Of a stretch of DNA of 64,000 bases, positions 50,708 to 57,900 are shown piece by piece. How positions within the stretch are numbered: the stretch's first letter is position 1; each line of letters begins with the position of its first letter. The stretch covers positions 1,076 through 65,075 of the forward strand of contig CANQST010000001.1 of assembly GCA_947626595.1 (NCBI GenBank), given 5' to 3'. The translations under genes and the position numbers were made by a program. This stretch comes from an uncultured Bacilli bacterium. GTDB taxonomy: Bacteria > Bacillota_I > Bacilli_A > RF39 > UBA660. Below the pieces are notes generated by a model. It searched no databases. It was not told where the DNA came from and saw only the letters and a program-made list of their open reading frames with translations.

Positions 50708-51832
50708 ATGAGAAGAGTACTTAAATGTATTGATAAGCCATTGTTAATATCTTGTATTATCTTATTTGCTTTAGGGCTAGTAATGATTTTTTCGGCTTCT
50801 AATGTTACGGCTTATATGTATCATAATGTAAGTACTTATTACTATTTTATAAGACAAGTAATTATTTTAGTAATTAGTGTTATAGTCTCTTGTATTCTTT
50901 TGTTTTTAAATCCTAAAAAGCATTATTATAAGACATCAATGCTTGGTATGATAATAATTATTGCGGTATTAATAGTATTGCTTATTGTTGGAGATCCACA
51001 AAATGATATGGTTGGTTGGTTTGATTTAGGTTTTTTCAATGTTCAACCTAGTGAGTTTGCGAAAGTTATTACAATTGTTTTTTTAGCTAGTTATTATAGT
51101 AAATATAAATTAGATACGTATGCTAAATGCTTGATACCAATAGTTTTATGTGTAGTAATTGCAGGACTTATCTTTTTACAACCGGACTTAGGTACAACAA
51201 TTATTTATACTTTAATAGTTGGACTTATCTTTTTAGCGGCTCCTGTTAGGAAAGATTTGAAAGTAAAAATAGTTTTTATTGTATTTAGTTTTTTAGTATT
51301 TGGAGTTATCTTTTTAGTAAGTTTTGGTAAAAACATATTAGAAGATAGACAGATTAGTCGTTTTAACTTTACTAATCCATGTGCAAGAATATTAGAGGAT
51401 GGTAATCAAGTATGTAATTGCTACATAGCGATAAATAATGGAGGTTTAACGGGAGTAGGTTTAGGTAATTCGACACAAAAGTATTTGTATTTACCAGAAC
51501 CTTATACGGACTTTATTTTTGCGATTATAGTTGAAGAGTTGGGTGTAGTTACTGGTATAGGTATAATTCTTATGTATATGTTTATTTTATATAGAATTTT
51601 AAGAATAGGTAGGAAAAGCGATACTAGAGGAGCACTTATTTGTTATGGTGTAGCTTGCTATATATTTTTACATATTGCGATTAATTTACTTGGTATATTT
51701 GGACTTATGCCTATGACAGGAGTACCTCTTCCTTTTATGAGTTATGGTGGTAGTTTTACAATATGTTTAATCGCAGCTTTAACTTTTGTACAAAGAATAA
51801 GTATTCAAAATGGTTTAAGTAAGGAAAATTAG
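50708..51832 (+). CDS. SEDS-family peptidoglycan glycosyltransferase (FtsW/RodA/SpoVE)
   Basis: RBS aaggag. 10-TM SEDS pattern, GGLTGVGLGNS, PEPYTDFIFA, LPFMSYGGS. Confidence 0.85.
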   Translation: MRRVLKCIDKPLLISCIILFALGLVMIFSASNVTAYMYHNVSTYYYFIRQVIILVISVIVSCILLFLNPKKHYYKTSMLGMIIIIAVLIVLLIVGDPQNDMVGWFDLGFFNVQPSEFAKVITIVFLASYYSKYKLDTYAKCLIPIVLCVVIAGLIFLQPDLGTTIIYTLIVGLIFLAAPVRKDLKVKIVFIVFSFLVFGVIFLVSFGKNILEDRQISRFNFTNPCARILEDGNQVCNCYIAINNGGLTGVGLGNSTQKYLYLPEPYTDFIFAIIVEELGVVTGIGIILMYMFILYRILRIGRKSDTRGALICYGVACYIFLHIAINLLGIFGLMPMTGVPLPFMSYGGSFTICLIAALTFVQRISIQNGLSKEN

Positions 51833-51834
51833 TT

Positions 51835-52326
51835 ATGATTTATTTAATTTCAGATACTCATTTTTATCATGACAATATTATTAAGTATTGTAATAGGCCA
51901 TTTAAAGATTATAAGGAAATGAATAGAGTTTTGATTGATAATTGGAATAAGGTTGTTAGTGAAAAAGATGTTGTTTATCATTTAGGGGACTTTGCTAAAG
52001 GAGAAGTTTATTTAAAAGAATTAGTTTCTAAGTTAAATGGAAAGATTTATTTATTAAGAGGTAATCATGATAAGAAAAATATAAAGTTTTATAAAGAGTG
52101 TGGATTAGAGGTAATACGTAATAAGACTAAGTTAGAAGAGTATAAGGTTATTCTTAGTCATAGTCCTCTTTTAGATGGAGAAATTCCAGAAGGGTATGTT
52201 AATATACATGGACATATTCATAATAATGATTTGGATGATTGCTATTTGAAAGATAGGCACATTAATGTATCAGTAGAAAATATTGGTTACAAGCCGGTTG
52301 AGATAGAGGAGTTACTGGCTAAGTAA
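51835..52326 (+). CDS. metallophosphoesterase (calcineurin-like)
   Basis: DTHFYHD, GDFAKG, GNHD motifs. Confidence 0.75.
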   Translation: MIYLISDTHFYHDNIIKYCNRPFKDYKEMNRVLIDNWNKVVSEKDVVYHLGDFAKGEVYLKELVSKLNGKIYLLRGNHDKKNIKFYKECGLEVIRNKTKLEEYKVILSHSPLLDGEIPEGYVNIHGHIHNNDLDDCYLKDRHINVSVENIGYKPVEIEELLAK

Positions 52327-52343
52327 ATTTAGGGGAGTTTTAA

Positions 52344-53540
52344 ATGAAACGTATACTTATGAATAAAAATGTAGAAGTTTTGGTTGTTGAATATGATACG
52401 GCAACAGGAGTTTTTAATAGTATATATGAAGTTAAAAATATTGATTATGCACCATATATTTTAAAAAGTTTTTATAAAGAAAATGATATTAATGACACTT
52501 TCTTTAGAAGTAGTTTGAGTGAATGGTTTAAAGATAGAGGTATTCCTTCATGGCGTGATAAGTTAGATTTATTATTACATAGATTAAATATAACAGCGCC
52601 TTATGAACTTTTAGATAAGGCATTTGGATTATCTTTATCAGATCAGTATTGGCTAAAGCCTTTTGATAGTGATATTAAATATAATGATATTAACTTTTTT
52701 GATAATGACTTTGATTACGCTGAATTTATGGAGGCTTCATTATCAACTAATAGTAAAATAATAACTAAAGAGGCATCTTTGAAAACACCTAATAATACTA
52801 CAGATGGAATGCTTCAAAAAGCTTGGATTATTGATAATGGGGTAAGATACTTATTAAAGGGTGGATACAAAAATGAAACTTTACAACCATTTAATGAAGT
52901 ATTAGCTAGTGAGATATGTGAAAGATTAGGATTTAATCATGTAAAATATACAATAGATACATATAAAGATAAAGTTGTTTCTAAGTGTCCATGTTTTATA
53001 ACAAAAGATACGGAGTTAGTTACATGCTACCAAATAAAAAATGATATGAACAGGCATGATAGTGTAGAAGATTATAATGAATATATTAGGAAATTAGAAG
53101 ATAATGGAATAGAAAGTGCTAGAGAAAAAGTAGAAAATATGTATATTCTAGATTTCCTTATCATGAATGAAGATAGGCATTTAAACAATTTTGGAATTAT
53201 AAGGGATGTTAATACTTTAAAATGGTTAGATGTTGCGCCTATATTTGATAATGGACAAAGTTTAAATATTGAGTATTATGACGAAGAGGAATTACATATT
53301 TCTGGAGAAGGAAGATTGTTTTATGAGATAAAGCCTTTTGACGAAATAATAAAGGTAGTTAAGAATTTAAAAAGAATTGATATAGAAGAATTAGATGGTA
53401 TAGTAGAGTGGTTTGATAATTTATTACATAAATATCAGCATTTAACTCATTATTCTGATATGAGAATTAATAGATTATGTACTTTACTTAATAGACAGAT
53501 TAACAAGTTAAAGGAATTAATAGAAAAAGAAAACACTTAA
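52344..53540 (+). CDS. HipA-like Ser/Thr kinase domain protein (orphan, no HipB partner)
   Basis: ILDFLIMNEDRHLNNFGII matches the HipA catalytic loop (…GNxDxHxKNfS…). APIFDNG matches HipA (L)APAYD. Confidence 0.6.
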   Translation: MKRILMNKNVEVLVVEYDTATGVFNSIYEVKNIDYAPYILKSFYKENDINDTFFRSSLSEWFKDRGIPSWRDKLDLLLHRLNITAPYELLDKAFGLSLSDQYWLKPFDSDIKYNDINFFDNDFDYAEFMEASLSTNSKIITKEASLKTPNNTTDGMLQKAWIIDNGVRYLLKGGYKNETLQPFNEVLASEICERLGFNHVKYTIDTYKDKVVSKCPCFITKDTELVTCYQIKNDMNRHDSVEDYNEYIRKLEDNGIESAREKVENMYILDFLIMNEDRHLNNFGIIRDVNTLKWLDVAPIFDNGQSLNIEYYDEEELHISGEGRLFYEIKPFDEIIKVVKNLKRIDIEELDGIVEWFDNLLHKYQHLTHYSDMRINRLCTLLNRQINKLKELIEKENT

Positions 53541-53623
53541 TCATGGCAAATGGTTAAGTGTTTTAACAAAGAAATTTATCATAAAATATTGAATTGTTAT
53601 AGTACAATCACTTAGTGATGACT

Positions 53624-53707
53624 ATGAGTAAAAAAGATTTTTTAATACTTTCTCAAGTACTAATAATAATTTTATTTATAGTACTATTATTATTAAACAC
53701 TATATAA
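53624..53707 (+). CDS. 27-aa hydrophobic peptide, type I toxin-like (copy 1)
   Basis: MSKKDFLILSQVLIIILFIVLLLLNTI has a charged head plus a single TM. Followed by hairpin terminators. Weak SD. Confidence 0.4.
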   Translation: MSKKDFLILSQVLIIILFIVLLLLNTI

Positions 53708-53888
53708 TTACATAGCAAAAAATAAAACAATAGCGCTCAATCAAGTAGGTTGAGTACTCTTTCAATTTCTTTGGAGGAAGTACTCACTGCTAACAAGTAT
53801 CTTCCTTTTTTATTTTATGCAAATTTCTTTGACATATTAAATATAACATATTTCAAATAAAAATGCAACAAATTTTTTACAAAAAGTG

Positions 53889-53917
53889 TTGCATAAAATA
53901 TACATCTGTTATATAAT
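53889..53917 (+). promoter_or_regulatory. sigma-A promoter TTGCAT-17-TATAAT for copy 2 of the small-peptide gene
   Basis: ttgcataaaatatacatctgttatataat. Confidence 0.55.
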
Positions 53918-53945
53918 GTAAATGGAAGATATTTGTGAGAGTGCG

Positions 53946-53963
53946 ACCTCCTAAAAAGGAGGT
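53946..53963 (+). promoter_or_regulatory. 5'-UTR hairpin sequestering the Shine-Dalgarno (acctcc-taaaaa-ggaggt)
   Basis: A perfect 6-bp stem whose 3' arm is the SD aggagg 8 nt upstream of the ATG at 53971. This is a hallmark of type I toxin mRNAs. Confidence 0.5.
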
Positions 53964-53970
53964 GGTTACT

Positions 53971-54054
53971 ATGAGTAAAAAAGATTTTTTAATACTTTTT
54001 CAAGTACTAATAATAATTTTACTTATAGTACTATTACTATTAGACGCTATATAA
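53971..54054 (+). CDS. 27-aa hydrophobic peptide, type I toxin-like (copy 2)
   Basis: MSKKDFLILFQVLIIILLIVLLLLDAI. Strong SD aaggaggtgg. Followed by a perfect 11-bp-stem hairpin and a second terminator. Confidence 0.45.
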   Translation: MSKKDFLILFQVLIIILLIVLLLLDAI

Positions 54055-54405
54055 TTACGTAGAAAAAATAAAATAATAATAGCACTCAATCAAATGGATT
54101 GAGTGCTTTAACCAATACTGGAGGAAGTACTCGATACCAAACAAGTATCTTCCTTTTTTTATTTTATGCAAATTTCTTTGACATATTAAATATAACATAT
54201 TTTTAATAAAAACGCAACAAATTTTCCACTTAATTTATACTGGCTCTCCAGCCAGTAGTTCCTAACTAAGTATTAATTGTATAATTTAATCAGAGTAAGC
54301 TAGCATCTAGCTAGCTTACATTTCTCCTCTTAGTAGCAGCATTGTAATACTATCTTAGTATTAAATCAAATTATATGTAGATAATAATTGTAGGTGATGG
54401 TCTTC

Positions 54406-54453
54406 ATGAATAAGTTAAAAAATAGGCGCAATATATATATATATATATTATAG
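54406..54453 (+). other. orphaned translation-initiation region and signal-peptide N-region (MNKLKNRRNIYIYIL*) of the downstream FGE-domain gene, out of frame
   Basis: SD aggtga 8 nt upstream of ATG 54406. The 15-codon frame ends at TAG 54451-54453. The downstream ORF's frame is open back to 54426 (…YIYIYIIAVGIVIGFGSLVYAVGSVIESKSV…) and is +2 relative to this ATG. Confidence 0.6.
54431..54448 (+). repeat. (AT)9 dinucleotide simple-sequence repeat inside the 5' coding region
   Basis: atatatatatatatatat. Loss of one AT unit (or gain of two) fuses ATG 54406 to the FGE-domain ORF. Confidence 0.85.
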
Positions 54454-54524
54454 CTGTTGGAATAGTAATAGGGTTTGGTAGTTTAGTCTACGCAGTAGGT
54501 TCAGTAATAGAAAGTAAGTCAGTT

Positions 54525-55892
54525 TTGTATAATAGAACTATAAGTGGTGGAAGTTCAGATAATGTACAGGGTTCAATAGACGAATTATATAAAATGAGTG
54601 GAGTAAGTACTACTCAATATAAGGAAGAAATTTTAAACGGAGCAGACCCAGTATTGGGTGAAGGAATGATACCAGTAACTTTAGATGGTGATGGGACAGT
54701 AAAGTACGCTAATTTAAATACACCTTGGTATAAATATGAAGAAAAGAAATGGGCAAATGCAGTAATACTTAAGAGTAATCCAAGTAAAAGTTATAAAACA
54801 GGGGATATAATCTCAGAAAACGATATTGAGAGTTATTTTGTGTGGGTTCCAAGATTTAAATACAAAATATGGAACTTAACAAGTGAAGATGGGTATCAAG
54901 ATACATTTACTAATACTGCTAATGATGCTAATTCTATAAGACAACTTACTGGAAAAGCAAGATTAATAGACATAATATTTGAAGATAAAGATGCACAACC
55001 ATCAACTACAATAGCATTAAATTTATATTATACCCATCCAGCGTTTACTGCTTTTAGAGTAAATGGTTTATGGATAGCTAAATTTGAAGCTAGTGGTACA
55101 ACAAGTGCCATAACAGTAAAACCAAATATGACTTCTTTAAGAAGTACCACAGTTGGTTCTTTTTGGCATGCATTTTATGATTATAAAAATACTAGTGGAA
55201 ATCATAATACTAATTTAGATCCACACATGATAAAGAACACTGAATGGGGAGCAGTCGCCTATCTTTCTCATTCAGTATATGGAATAGGTAAAGAAGTAAA
55301 TGTAAATAATAATTTAAGTTTTAAAACAGGTTATTCGGCGGCATCAAATACTGACCAAAGTTCATATTCTGGAACTACCGGAACTAAAGAAATTACTGAT
55401 GATGATGGACCAGCAGTAACACAACCATATAATACATCAACTGGCTATCTTGCTTCAACAACAGGAAATATCACAGGAATATATGATATGAGTGGTGGTG
55501 CTTGGGAATTTGTAGCAGGTTATCTTGACCCTTATGGACTTAGTAATAATAGTGGGGTAGCAAGTGGCTTAACGGCTACTGATTTAGCTAAAGCACAGTA
55601 CTTTGACCAATATTCTGGTGCTTTAACATGGTCTTCTTACAGTAAGAGAATTGTTGGAGACGCCACTGGAGAGTTAGGTCCTTTCTACTATTATAAAGAT
55701 AAAGATAATTCTAGTCGCACTCATAATGGATGGTATGCTGACAGCTCTAATTTTATTGAACCTATCAATACTTGGTTTGTTAGAGGTGGTTATTGTGCTG
55801 ATGGAGTACTAGCTGGTCAGTTTAATTTTGATAGGTATACTGGAGGCATGAATGTCAATCGTGGTTCTAGGTTTGTTCTTGCAGTAAAGTAA
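54525..55892 (+). CDS. secreted FGE-sulfatase/SUMF1-domain protein (paralog A), currently separated from its start and signal peptide by a frameshift
   Basis: FGE-domain motifs: HPAFTAFRVNGLWIAKFEAS, MIKNTEWGAVAYL (≈LPTEAEWEYAA), GIYDMSGGAWEFV (≈GLYDMAGNVWEW), VRGGYC (≈RGGSW), NRGSRFVLA (≈GFR). The TTG at 54525 is only the first in-frame start codon in the ORF track. Confidence 0.65.
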   Translation: MYNRTISGGSSDNVQGSIDELYKMSGVSTTQYKEEILNGADPVLGEGMIPVTLDGDGTVKYANLNTPWYKYEEKKWANAVILKSNPSKSYKTGDIISENDIESYFVWVPRFKYKIWNLTSEDGYQDTFTNTANDANSIRQLTGKARLIDIIFEDKDAQPSTTIALNLYYTHPAFTAFRVNGLWIAKFEASGTTSAITVKPNMTSLRSTTVGSFWHAFYDYKNTSGNHNTNLDPHMIKNTEWGAVAYLSHSVYGIGKEVNVNNNLSFKTGYSAASNTDQSSYSGTTGTKEITDDDGPAVTQPYNTSTGYLASTTGNITGIYDMSGGAWEFVAGYLDPYGLSNNSGVASGLTATDLAKAQYFDQYSGALTWSSYSKRIVGDATGELGPFYYYKDKDNSSRTHNGWYADSSNFIEPINTWFVRGGYCADGVLAGQFNFDRYTGGMNVNRGSRFVLAVK

Positions 55893-55917
55893 AAGGAAAA
55901 AGGATGTGATTTATATT

Positions 55918-57900
55918 ATGAATAATAGAAAACAAAAATATATAATAATTGGAGCTTTATGTTTAGTTGTAACTCTACTGTCTATAGGTTATGCTGTATT
56001 GTCTGCTACCTTAAGAATTAATGGAACAGCAAAAGTATCAGGTGAAAAATGGAGTGTTGAGTTTGTAGAAAAGCAAGCGAGGACAATACCAAAAGGTAAA
56101 GCTGCTTGTGATATTGGTACTATCGCTAATACTTCAGTAACAAACCTATTAGCTAAAGTAAAGGTACCAGGAGATAGTTGTACATTTACTATACCAGTAG
56201 AAAATACTGGAACATTGGATGCAAGTTTAGTTGATGTTACTAATAAAGCTTTGTCTTTGTCATATGATGGAAATCAAGAGGATATTGATATCATAAGTAG
56301 TTATATAACTTATGATGTTAGATATGGTAACACACAAGTAAATAATGAAACTAATTTTGATAGCATTGATATCTTAGAGCCAGGTGAAAGAGAAACTATA
56401 ACTTTAAAAGTAGAATTTAAAGAAGAAGCAACACAAATACCAAATGCAGTTGTAACAGTAACAGGATTAGATAGAACTTTTAATTTTGAAAATAAGGTTG
56501 GTTCAAGTACTACTAGTCCAACACCTAACACAACTCCAGTGTTCAATGATACAAGTGGAGCTAATCAACCTGTGCTTAGTGACAATATGATACCTGTAGT
56601 ATATGACGAAACAAGAAAAGAATGGGTAAAACAAAATTTAGATAAAAGTTATGATTATTCACAACAAGTATGGGCTAATGCTGTAACTGTAGTTGAAGAT
56701 GGAACCCAAACAAGAAGTTATTATAAGAAAGCCAAAGCTGGAACTGTTATATCAATGGAAGATATAAACACAATGTGGGTATGGATACCAAGATATAGTT
56801 ATACTATTAAGAGTGAAGATGGGGAGAACTATTATGGTAAAGCAAGTTCAGATAATCAAAGTCCAACACAAGAATTACCTGGAGAAATAGATGTTAAGTT
56901 TATACCCATAAGTGAAAATGATAGTGATGGTAGTGCTCAATACACAGAAGAAGAACCAACTGGATGGTTTACCCCACCAGGGTTTAAATTTGGAGATAAA
57001 GATTTATCAGGGGTTTGGGTAGGAAAGTTTGAGACAGGTTCAATTGATGGAACAGATCATGGAGATGTAGAAACAGATAACTTAGTGGCAATTAAGCCTA
57101 ATATAACATCTTGGAGAAATATTAGAGTATCAACCTTAGAATTAGTTTCCATGGGATTAACTAAAACTGGAAATGTTTATGGTTTTGATAATACCTATGA
57201 TAGTCATGCAATTAAGAATACCGAATGGGCACTTATGGTATACTTAACTCAAAGTAAATATGGTAAATATGGAAATGCATTATATACAGGATCTAGTAAA
57301 GAAGTTTACATTAACAATTACAATAAGTATGTTACTGGCTGTTCGGGTGGAGCCGGTGCTGCAGATATTTCTTCAGAATGTTCTTATCATTATGATAATT
57401 TAACGACAAAAGGACAAGGGACTGGATATGCTGGAGCTGGTGCTTCAACAACTGGAAATGTTTATGGAATATATGATACTAATGGTGGCGCTTGGGAGTA
57501 TGTAATGGGAAGTTATTCAGCTGGAGGACAAAAATATTCTGGAACAGCAGTGTCAAACAATTCTGGATATGTAGGTAAAATTAATAGTGGAACTGCCGAT
57601 TTTAGTGAAAATGCTAGAGAATGGCAAGCTGATAAATATTATGACTTTTATACCAGCGGAGATACATTAACAGCATGTAATGGTAACCCATGTAAAGGTC
57701 ATGCTTTAAATGAGTTTTCACAATGGTATAATGATGGAATGTTTTTTATATTGAGTTCTTACCCATGGCTATATAGAGGTCATGATTATGGCTATAATGC
57801 AACAAGTGGAATTTTTGGATTTTCACGTAGTGGTGGTCATGCGTATGGTGGTGCAAGAGGAAATGATAGTTTCCGTATAGTCCTAACCCCTAACAATTAA
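55918..57900 (+). CDS. secreted protein with SipW-cognate signal, TasA/camelysin-like N-domain and C-terminal FGE-sulfatase/SUMF1 domain (paralog B)
   Basis: MNNRKQKYIIIGALCLVVTLLSIGYAVLSATL signal. Residues ~30-210 parallel the 172-aa TasA-like protein (PGDSCTFTIPVENTGTLDASL vs PGDTITYRVTIENLGTINAKL). The C-terminal half is collinear with paralog A (IKNTEWALMVYL, GIYDTNGGAWEYV, GFSRSGG…SFRIVLTP). Confidence 0.75.
   Translation: MNNRKQKYIIIGALCLVVTLLSIGYAVLSATLRINGTAKVSGEKWSVEFVEKQARTIPKGKAACDIGTIANTSVTNLLAKVKVPGDSCTFTIPVENTGTLDASLVDVTNKALSLSYDGNQEDIDIISSYITYDVRYGNTQVNNETNFDSIDILEPGERETITLKVEFKEEATQIPNAVVTVTGLDRTFNFENKVGSSTTSPTPNTTPVFNDTSGANQPVLSDNMIPVVYDETRKEWVKQNLDKSYDYSQQVWANAVTVVEDGTQTRSYYKKAKAGTVISMEDINTMWVWIPRYSYTIKSEDGENYYGKASSDNQSPTQELPGEIDVKFIPISENDSDGSAQYTEEEPTGWFTPPGFKFGDKDLSGVWVGKFETGSIDGTDHGDVETDNLVAIKPNITSWRNIRVSTLELVSMGLTKTGNVYGFDNTYDSHAIKNTEWALMVYLTQSKYGKYGNALYTGSSKEVYINNYNKYVTGCSGGAGAADISSECSYHYDNLTTKGQGTGYAGAGASTTGNVYGIYDTNGGAWEYVMGSYSAGGQKYSGTAVSNNSGYVGKINSGTADFSENAREWQADKYYDFYTSGDTLTACNGNPCKGHALNEFSQWYNDGMFFILSSYPWLYRGHDYGYNATSGIFGFSRSGGHAYGGARGNDSFRIVLTPNN

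Follow-up and report, generated by a model that had tools for sequence, protein, structure and literature searches.

A putative type I toxin-antitoxin family with predicted end-to-end mRNA pairing in uncultured gut Bacilli

Relation to described type I systems

Type I toxin-antitoxin systems are hard to find because their toxins are tiny and diverge quickly, and to our knowledge the known families come from cultured Proteobacteria and Bacillota. Here we describe a candidate system in an uncultured Bacilli bacterium of the RF39 lineage, located on a 64,000-nucleotide stretch of contig CANQST010000001.1 (assembly GCA_947626595.1, positions 1,076 to 65,075), which we call the window and to which all coordinates refer. 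The locus consists of two head-to-tail units, unit 1 (53545-53880) and unit 2 (53870-54235), ~348 bp each and 87% identical, and each carries a plus-strand open reading frame (ORF) for a 27-aa hydrophobic peptide: MSKKDFLILSQVLIIILFIVLLLLNTI in unit 1 (53624-53707, intact, with an ATG start) and MSKKDFLILFQVLIIILLIVLLLLDAI, a putative membrane toxin, in unit 2 (53971-54054, also starting with ATG). The original prediction, made from this DNA alone, had reported the same two peptides at these positions in units that it put at ~90% identity, and 90% is the value for the ORF block. A 26-nt motif from the tail of the units and a 28-nt motif from the start of the ORF each occur exactly twice in the 64 kb, where none would be expected. 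We think that each unit is probably an autonomous module of the type I toxin-antitoxin kind, made up of a sense and an antisense RNA gene.

In the TxpA/RatA and BsrG/SR4 systems of Bacillus subtilis, the toxin mRNA carries its Shine-Dalgarno (SD) sequence in a structured region, and formation of the toxin-antitoxin RNA duplex leads to RNase III-dependent decay. Both combine a small hydrophobic peptide with an antisense RNA transcribed convergently across the 3' part of the mRNA (PMC8594479), and the layout predicted for the units is the same. The units differ from these systems, however, in having shorter peptides (22-30 aa across the family, as opposed to 38-59), no sequence or profile similarity, and no match to an Rfam RatA or SR4-type model. 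In addition, the antisense RNA predicted here stops just past the stop codon, leaving the ORF uncovered, and the mRNA 5' end pairs with the very region that the antisense RNA would target. More generally, SD/anti-SD elements, terminator stem-loops and 5'-3' interactions count as key determinants of type I toxin mRNAs, and an antisense RNA on the 3' side is the Gram-positive type I layout (PMC8594479).

The Fst/RNAII pair (par of pAD1) and SprA1/SprA1as also have an antisense RNA on the 3' side that does not overlap the ORF (PMC8594479), and there, as predicted here, a 5' structure sequesters the SD and protects the mRNA. In those two systems the functional interaction lies outside the overlap, either in 5' direct repeats or between the 5' domain of the antisense RNA and the SD (PMC8594479), whereas in the units described here the overlap in the 3' untranslated region (UTR) is the only extensive complementarity. 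The two RNAs here also have separate terminators in place of one shared bidirectional terminator, and the peptide does not match the Pfam Fst model. Closure of the mRNA by a 5'-3' long-distance interaction, together with a sequestered SD, is a class feature shared with hok/sok and AapA1/IsoA1 (PMC8594479). Those systems are Gram-negative, their antisense RNAs lie within the 5' half of the mRNA, and 3' trimming activates the mRNA. In contrast, the antisense RNA here would target the 3' partner of the long-distance interaction, and the predicted sequestration of the SD is local and independent of that interaction. The peptides of Ibs/Sib and ShoB from Escherichia coli are similarly small (19-26 aa) and consist almost wholly of Ile, Leu and Val, and the ibs-sib loci are likewise repeated in tandem within intergenic regions (PMC2887945). 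They belong to a different phylum, however, Sib covers the whole ibs ORF, and no profile match links them to the peptides described here. To be duplicated in tandem is a recognised trait of type I loci, with ibs-sib, ldr-rdl and zorO/P as examples (PMC2887945).

The original prediction likened the peptides to the Fst/TxpA/BsrG class. In architecture the likeness stands; at the profile level, membership in a named family fails. With hmmscan, neither the two window peptides nor five family representatives matched a Pfam-A toxin family at E up to 1, NCBIfam gave no match for either window peptide, and PADLOC and PHROGs gave no toxin match for the window peptides and two family consensus peptides. 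There was thus no profile match to Fst/Ldr, TxpA/BsrG, Hok, Ibs, TisB or other curated toxin families, although profile searches have little power on 27-aa peptides. On the RNA side, the only matches to the interval 52500-55500 in an Rfam cmscan with E up to 10 were unrelated small RNAs at chance level, the best being MicA (20 bits) and CyaR (18 bits), both far below their gathering scores. None of the known antitoxin RNA models (RatA, SR4-type, par RNAII, Sok, Sib, Rdl, IstR and others) matched this interval, and the peptide motif was not found in the literature searched. Judged by these comparisons, the units apparently belong to a new, undescribed family of the known type I kind.

To find relatives, we used a degenerate pattern to search 185,579 species-representative genomes for DNA that could encode M-[S/T..]-K-K-D-F-L-I-[L/F]. 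The search is biased toward one N-terminal motif and yielded at least 120 loci. Of the loci listed, 95 hold about 100 ORFs that have 20-30 codons and encode M[ST]KKDFLI[FL] followed by a run of Ile, Leu, Val and Phe. Among the matches listed, 48 of 91 unique ORFs encode 27 aa, 17 encode 24 aa and eight encode 22 aa, and all positive loci come from low-GC metagenome-assembled genomes (MAGs) of the gut, from rabbit, goat, sheep, deer, mouse and human (Hadza) hosts. The MAGs are labelled uncultured Bacilli, Tenericutes, Erysipelotrichaceae, Firmicutes CAG:582 or Candidatus Coprosoma. About 20 pattern matches in Bacteroidota, Spirochaetota and other phyla have no such 20-30-aa ORF and therefore serve as an internal negative control. 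The family thus occurs in at least ~90 species-level genomes of uncultured low-GC gut Bacilli, lineages with almost no experimental genetics, and tandem arrays of two to four units are common in it.

The sense and antisense RNAs

Unit 2, as read from its sequence, is intact and carries every feature of the family. Its sense promoter consists of TTGCAT (53889-53894), a 17-nt spacer and TATAAT (53912-53917). The original prediction called this a consensus promoter, which is slightly generous: the -10 element is perfect, but the -35 element fits only three of the six consensus positions. Of the 40 relatives with a scored promoter, 33 have a TATAAT-type -10 element, often TG-extended, whose end lies 7 nt upstream of a conserved 5' box. 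All transcription start sites given here are predicted from such promoters. The 5' box has the family form GGAAYAYTTAAY-A-GTTGRGTG and in unit 2 extends over 53924-53952 (GGAAGATATTTGT..GAGTGCGACCTCC). At the other end of the predicted mRNA lie the 3' box and terminator, GGAGGAAGTACTC..ACAAGTATCTTCC then T7 (54120-54160), in which a hairpin with the arms GGAAGTACT (54123-54131) and AAGTATCTTCC (54143-54153) precedes the T7 tract (54154-54160).

The strongest RNA feature, absent from the original prediction, is the modeled pairing of the mRNA 5' end with the 3' terminator region. The terminator region at the 3' end offers sequence complementary to the 5' box of the same mRNA in both of its arms and in its flank. 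In the minimum free energy (MFE) fold of unit 2, the 5' box pairs with the 3' box (54120-54153). In this fold GGAAGAUAUUUGU (53924-53936) pairs with ACAAGUAUCUUCC (54141-54153), and GAGUGC..CCUCC is able to pair with GGAGG..GUACUC (54120-54132). The RNAduplex energy of the two ends of unit 2 is -37.4 kcal/mol, compared with -16.2 for non-cognate partners. Across the family, cognate duplexes average -30.7 kcal/mol, permuted partners -22.0 ± 0.5 and shuffled 3' ends -13.1, and none of 10,000 family-wide permutations reached the cognate energy. In full-length MFE folds, 77 of 83 members form at least eight 5'-3' pairs, with a mean of 22 vs. 5.9 in shuffled sequences. The complementarity is kept even where the boxes themselves differ, as in GGAAUGUUCGGU/ACCGGACGUUCC (locus L036), GGAAAUAUUGUAAC/GUUACAAUGUUUCC (L043) and AGCACGUUC/GAACGUGCU (L015). 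Simple ungapped best-register pairing scores did not discriminate cognate (9.7 and 11.2) from non-cognate (9.0 and 10.3) combinations. The duplexes contain ~2.5 G.U pairs each, and in 72 of 83 members the mRNA strand gives a stronger duplex than the opposite strand does, an asymmetry that points to selection on RNA and not on DNA inverted repeats.

The second structural element at the 5' end is a local hairpin that buries the SD. The original prediction had proposed it for unit 2, and ACCTCCT (53946-53952) and AGGAGGT (53957-53963) are indeed paired across an AAAA loop in both the MFE and centroid folds. An GGAGGTGAT-type SD lies 5-8 nt before the ATG in nearly all family members, and its region is predicted to be ~80% paired across the family. 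The predicted probability that the SD is unpaired is 0.17 in unit 2 and 0.20 on average in the family, whereas 39 ordinary genes of the window have a median of 0.42. For the mRNA as a whole (53925-54166), the MFE is -70.4 kcal/mol (z = -7.8) with the closure included, and family folds average -69.7 kcal/mol vs. -38.6 for shuffled sequences. The predicted mRNA thus combines a sequestered SD with a stable, highly structured fold, as is characteristic of type I toxin mRNAs.

We also considered a switch of the BsrG/SR4 type, in which 5'-3' pairing would free the SD and the antisense RNA would sequester it again. This is not supported, as predicted SD accessibility is ~0.2 in all four states (unpaired probability 0.20 vs. 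0.20 and 0.17 after 3' truncation and 3' UTR blocking). Since accessibility is unchanged by antisense binding or 3' truncation, we claim no translational switch. The comparison with hok and AapA1 is accordingly partial: the mRNA 5' end pairs with the 3' end, on energetic and permutation evidence, but a long-distance interaction occluding the SD was not found, the anti-SD being local and the predicted accessibility unaffected by 3' truncation.

The unit ends in a conserved 71-nt tail, 96% identical between units 1 and 2. The suggestion that this tail might carry an antisense promoter has held up well, and from its sequence we read the tail as a minus-strand promoter together with the first stem-loop of its predicted transcript. 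In unit 2 (54217-54189, minus strand) the promoter comprises TTGCGT (54217-54212), a 17-nt spacer and TGTTATATT (TGnTATATT, with the -10 element at 54194-54189). In unit 1 (53868-53840, minus strand) it comprises TTGCAT (53868-53863), a 17-nt spacer and again TGTTATATT (TGnTATATT, -10 at 53845-53840). On the minus strand, at a fixed offset past the T-run of the mRNA, nearly all relatives have TTGnnA and TGnTAnnAT separated by a 17-nt spacer, while the spacer sequence varies. The promoter scores at least 10 in 62 of 89 members vs. 1.4% of random 44-nt windows, its position is kept in 62-73 of the 89 vs. 1.4-10.6% of background windows, and the TG extension of the -10 element is present in 70.

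From its predicted start and terminator, the putative antitoxin RNA of unit 2 would be ~115-120 nt long, running on the minus strand from 54182 to ~54062-54066, and would thus be a cis-encoded antisense RNA overlapping the toxin mRNA. Its order of elements is a 5' stem-loop (54184-54166), an A-run, a central hairpin, a terminator hairpin (54107-54081) and a T-run; the central part is the complement of the mRNA terminator, followed by a short stem. The arms of the 5' stem-loop covary between members (GCAAG/CTTGC, TGAAG/CTTCA, GAGG/CCTC, GAGT/ACTC). The terminator hairpin is a perfect 11-bp inverted repeat past the stop codon (54081-54107). The original prediction had seen this repeat, as well as the second hairpin with its T-run, and both are present in unit 2, but it took them as paired terminators of one transcript. 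In a terminator pattern scan, a T-run follows the 11-bp repeat on the minus strand only, and we therefore read this repeat as the terminator of the antisense RNA, while the second hairpin belongs to the plus-strand mRNA.

The antisense RNA of unit 2 folds with -36.1 kcal/mol (z = -5.6). A covariance model built from 49 members finds unit 2 with 72.9 bits (E = 5e-10) and unit 1 with 61.4 bits (E = 4e-8) in the window, and recovers 81 copies from 100 loci, including arrays of two to four units. In the model alignment, pairing holds at 97.2% of positions in the two antisense hairpins, and both partners vary in 15 of the 17 pairs. Not one of 500 shuffles attains any of these values, and slid controls are 26-40% paired. 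These percentages lean toward the model because the alignment was fitted to its structure. RNAalifold on an independent MAFFT alignment gave the same two helices, with 10 of 17 pairs compensated. The central hairpin is more stable on the antisense strand (-11.1 kcal/mol) than on the mRNA strand (-6.5), and this is the case in 63 of 70 members; the 3'-box DNA of unit 2 behaves similarly, with a local hairpin of -12.7 kcal/mol on the antisense strand vs. -7.3 on the mRNA strand. The greater stability on the antisense strand arises because many of the pairs are U.G in antisense orientation. Each strand thus has its own strand-specific structural signal, as expected for a sense/antisense RNA pair.

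Taken as a type I module, a unit could work as follows. A strong promoter would drive a ~240-nt mRNA for the 27-aa peptide (in unit 2, ~53924 to 54160), which would be poorly translated yet stable, with its SD buried locally and its first ~30 nt paired with the 3' terminator region. The convergent extended -10 promoter just past the mRNA terminator would produce the ~115-nt antisense RNA (54182 to ~54066), fully complementary to the whole 3' UTR and ending at the hairpin right after the stop codon. Binding may nucleate at two sites, the loop of the first hairpin and an internal loop of 7-10 nt that the 5'-3' helix leaves unpaired, and then extend to a duplex of ~100 bp that would displace the mRNA 5' end, since the antisense RNA and the 5' box compete for the same 3' box to which both are complementary. 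By analogy with TxpA/RatA and BsrG/SR4, RNase III cleavage and 5'-end-dependent nucleases would then destroy the mRNA. If the antisense RNA were lost, the stable mRNA would permit synthesis of the peptide and damage to the membrane.

A further, rather speculative idea is that the 3'-box DNA is read in two ways. In the antisense RNA it would form a stable local hairpin; on the mRNA strand, where the local hairpin is weak, the helix next to the U-tract would be formed with the mRNA's own 5' end. This helix would serve as a long-range intrinsic terminator and at the same time circularise the mRNA and protect it. As a mimic of the 5' end, the antisense RNA would open the mRNA by toehold-style displacement at the internal loop and expose both ends to nucleases. 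We regard this as possible but doubtful. For RNA biologists, the family offers a compact natural case of an antisense RNA targeting the 3' partner of an mRNA end-to-end helix.

Coding evidence and competing explanations

The small ORF itself carries the signature of a coding sequence. Over codons 10-20, the entropies at codon positions 1, 2 and 3 are 1.25, 0.45 and 1.42, and position 2 is a T in 87% of cases. Substitutions between related members number 473, 108 and 535 at the three positions, and codon changes divide into 490 synonymous and 485 nonsynonymous. Such a pattern in the alignments indicates a conserved coding gene that is clearly under purifying selection. The predicted product has a charged MSKKD head followed by ~20 hydrophobic residues that form one Ile/Leu-rich transmembrane helix, so that, as in the type I class, an ORF of less than 60-70 aa encodes a hydrophobic peptide with a predicted transmembrane helix. 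No gene on record corresponds to a 39-aa, GTG-extended version of the ORF.

Purifying selection would also be expected if the peptide were a nontoxic small membrane protein, perhaps one that modulates a membrane complex, and the antisense RNA did no more than tune its level. We consider this unlikely, but it is the most serious competitor. The peptide is assigned as a putative toxin from its sequence features. Type I toxins typically have a polar or charged C-terminal tail, which is missing in many members, the 27-mers often ending in I, L or V. The modules are also chromosomal, among housekeeping genes, and not on phages or plasmids. On the other hand, no conserved partner gene or operon accompanies the ORF, the modules occur in multiple copies per genome with decaying copies within tandem arrays, and the combination of SD sequestration, a closed mRNA and a convergent antisense gene is typical type I architecture (PMC8594479, PMC2887945).

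The missing C-terminal tail also weighs against the toxin-antitoxin interpretation itself, as do several other points. None of the searches detected homology to a characterised toxin or antitoxin RNA. Blocking or removal of the 3' UTR leaves the predicted SD sequestration as it was, which offers no route to switching translation on. The 5'-3' pairing is supported by duplex energies and permutation and not by per-pair covariation, and the case as a whole is one of sequence comparison and thermodynamic prediction. Lastly, the modules are absent from the phage and plasmid records searched and thus lend no support to a role in stabilising mobile elements: blastn against phage and plasmid collections returned nothing relevant, and all ten matches of an IMG/VR pattern scan were unrelated longer proteins or a chance ORF, with no family member among them. 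An association with phages or plasmids is therefore not supported. An empty peptide search of viral contigs was uninformative, because tblastn with default SEG and composition statistics masks such peptides and fails to recover even the window's own ORFs. Despite these points, we favor the type I interpretation, under which the family has a complete and sharply conserved RNA anatomy of two promoters, two terminators, SD sequestration and 5'-3' closure. The type I concept itself is left unchanged by it, and annotators gain a peptide pattern and a covariance model.

Far less probable is that the units are non-autonomous mobile or repeat elements resembling miniature inverted-repeat transposable elements, with the 5' and 3' boxes as terminal inverted repeats and the ORF incidental. 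The boxes are inverted repeats that change together between lineages, and the units are multi-copy, tandem and found in varied intergenic sites. They are also enriched beside tRNA genes, one of which lies within 600 nt in 19 of 95 loci vs. ~6% expected from random placement. The pairing of the boxes is strand-asymmetric in favor of the mRNA, however, and the antisense hairpins show the opposite asymmetry. The conserved tail falls outside the inverted repeats, the ORF has codon periodicity and an excess of synonymous changes, and both promoters are kept at fixed offsets.

The original prediction had allowed for leader peptides of a downstream operon. That the small ORF, which lies upstream of and on the same strand as 455-aa and 664-aa formylglycine-generating-enzyme-like (FGE-like) ORFs, is a leader peptide or attenuator for them can be dismissed: each unit is closed by a terminator of its own, with a convergent promoter beyond it, the downstream genes differ in nearly every relative, and 18 relatives have a convergent tRNA gene downstream instead. 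The 281 flanking ORFs of the family loci fall into 233 clusters, of which the largest, an ABC transporter, occurs in only nine loci; since neighboring genes are not conserved, the module is autonomous and not the leader of a conserved operon.

Unit 1 and the surroundings of the locus

Compared with unit 2, unit 1 looks like a decaying copy, as had been suspected from its weak SD and degenerate hairpin. Deletions, visible as gaps in the unit alignment, have removed the 5' box and the SD/anti-SD hairpin, and it is on this loss that we read the copy as decaying. Its best 5'-3' duplex reaches only -9.8 kcal/mol, and there are no long-distance pairs in its MFE fold. What remains upstream is a promoter-like site (53576-53603, plus strand) of TTATCA, a 16-nt spacer and TGnTATAGT, which scores 9/12 with the TG extension. 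The ORF differs from that of unit 2 by five nucleotide changes, four of them nonsynonymous. From the sequence and the unit alignment, the 3' box and terminator are GGAGGAAGTACTC..AAGTATCTTCC then T6 (53773-53811, plus strand). The antisense RNA (53716-53833, minus strand) has a weaker terminator, the post-stop hairpin (53758-53732) being imperfect with a mismatch, and its fold has a z-score of only -1.5. The antisense promoter of unit 1 is intact, however. The predicted interaction of its antisense RNA with the 3' UTR of unit 2 is -96 kcal/mol vs. -158 for the cognate pair, and this RNA may still add to the antitoxin dosage.

The covariance model recovers only the two units in the window, plus sub-threshold matches at 53507-53617. 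Sub-threshold matches of the antisense model at 53523-53617 score 18.6 bits (E = 0.5), and a hairpin at the stop codon of the upstream HipA-like gene (53530-53564, AAAACACTTAATCAT/ATGGTTAAGTGTTTT) resembles the 3'-box hairpin of the family (CACTCAAC..ATTAAGTGTT). The segment 53523-53617 may be the relic of a third, older unit or simply the terminator of the kinase gene. The upstream gene encodes a 398-aa protein (52344-53540) in which only the HipA C-terminal kinase domain was matched, and barely so (32.2 bits, cut-off 30.5); NCBIfam gave no match, and its 90% cluster has only two members. The ORF listing for 51000-57000 contains no separate small ORF directly upstream of it that might encode a HipB, the flanking ORFs not having been tested for a HipB domain.

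Two metagenome contigs from ENA (L001 and L002) carry the same HipA-like gene and an identical locus sequence. Contig L002 stops within the tail of unit 2, at approximately window position 54194, which is a typical repeat-type assembly break. Family copy numbers in MAGs are probably underestimated because the tandem repeat breaks short-read assemblies, and the family accounts for the repeat behind such breaks in these MAGs.

Between unit 2 and the first FGE-like gene, in a window with a GC content of 27%, lie two more perfect hairpins, both outside the repeat unit: CTGGCT-CTCC-AGCCAG (54241-54256) and GTAAGCTAGC-ATCTA-GCTAGCTTAC (54295-54319), the latter scored as terminator-like for the plus strand. 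In front of the 455-aa FGE-like ORF, at 54407-54460, an ATG is followed by an (AT)9 tract and is out of frame with the large ORF. Contig L001 (8064-8110) differs from the window there by a 3-nt TAT indel beside the tract and by nearby single-nucleotide differences, and is otherwise identical. This difference is in-frame and thus does not in itself demonstrate on/off phase variation.

Of the 19 family loci with an adjacent tRNA gene, the 18 in which it is downstream and convergent include nine tRNA-Leu, four tRNA-Thr and two tRNA-Arg genes (L034, L102 and L104 are examples); the adjacency may reflect hot spots of insertion or the edges of genomic islands. MAGs labelled 'uncultured Muribaculaceae' (loci L014, L016, L045, L059, L080 and L088) carry the family on contigs of 24-32% GC, as do the MAGs labelled Bacilli and Tenericutes. 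The GC content of Muribaculaceae is far higher than this, and these bins or their labels are probably wrong.

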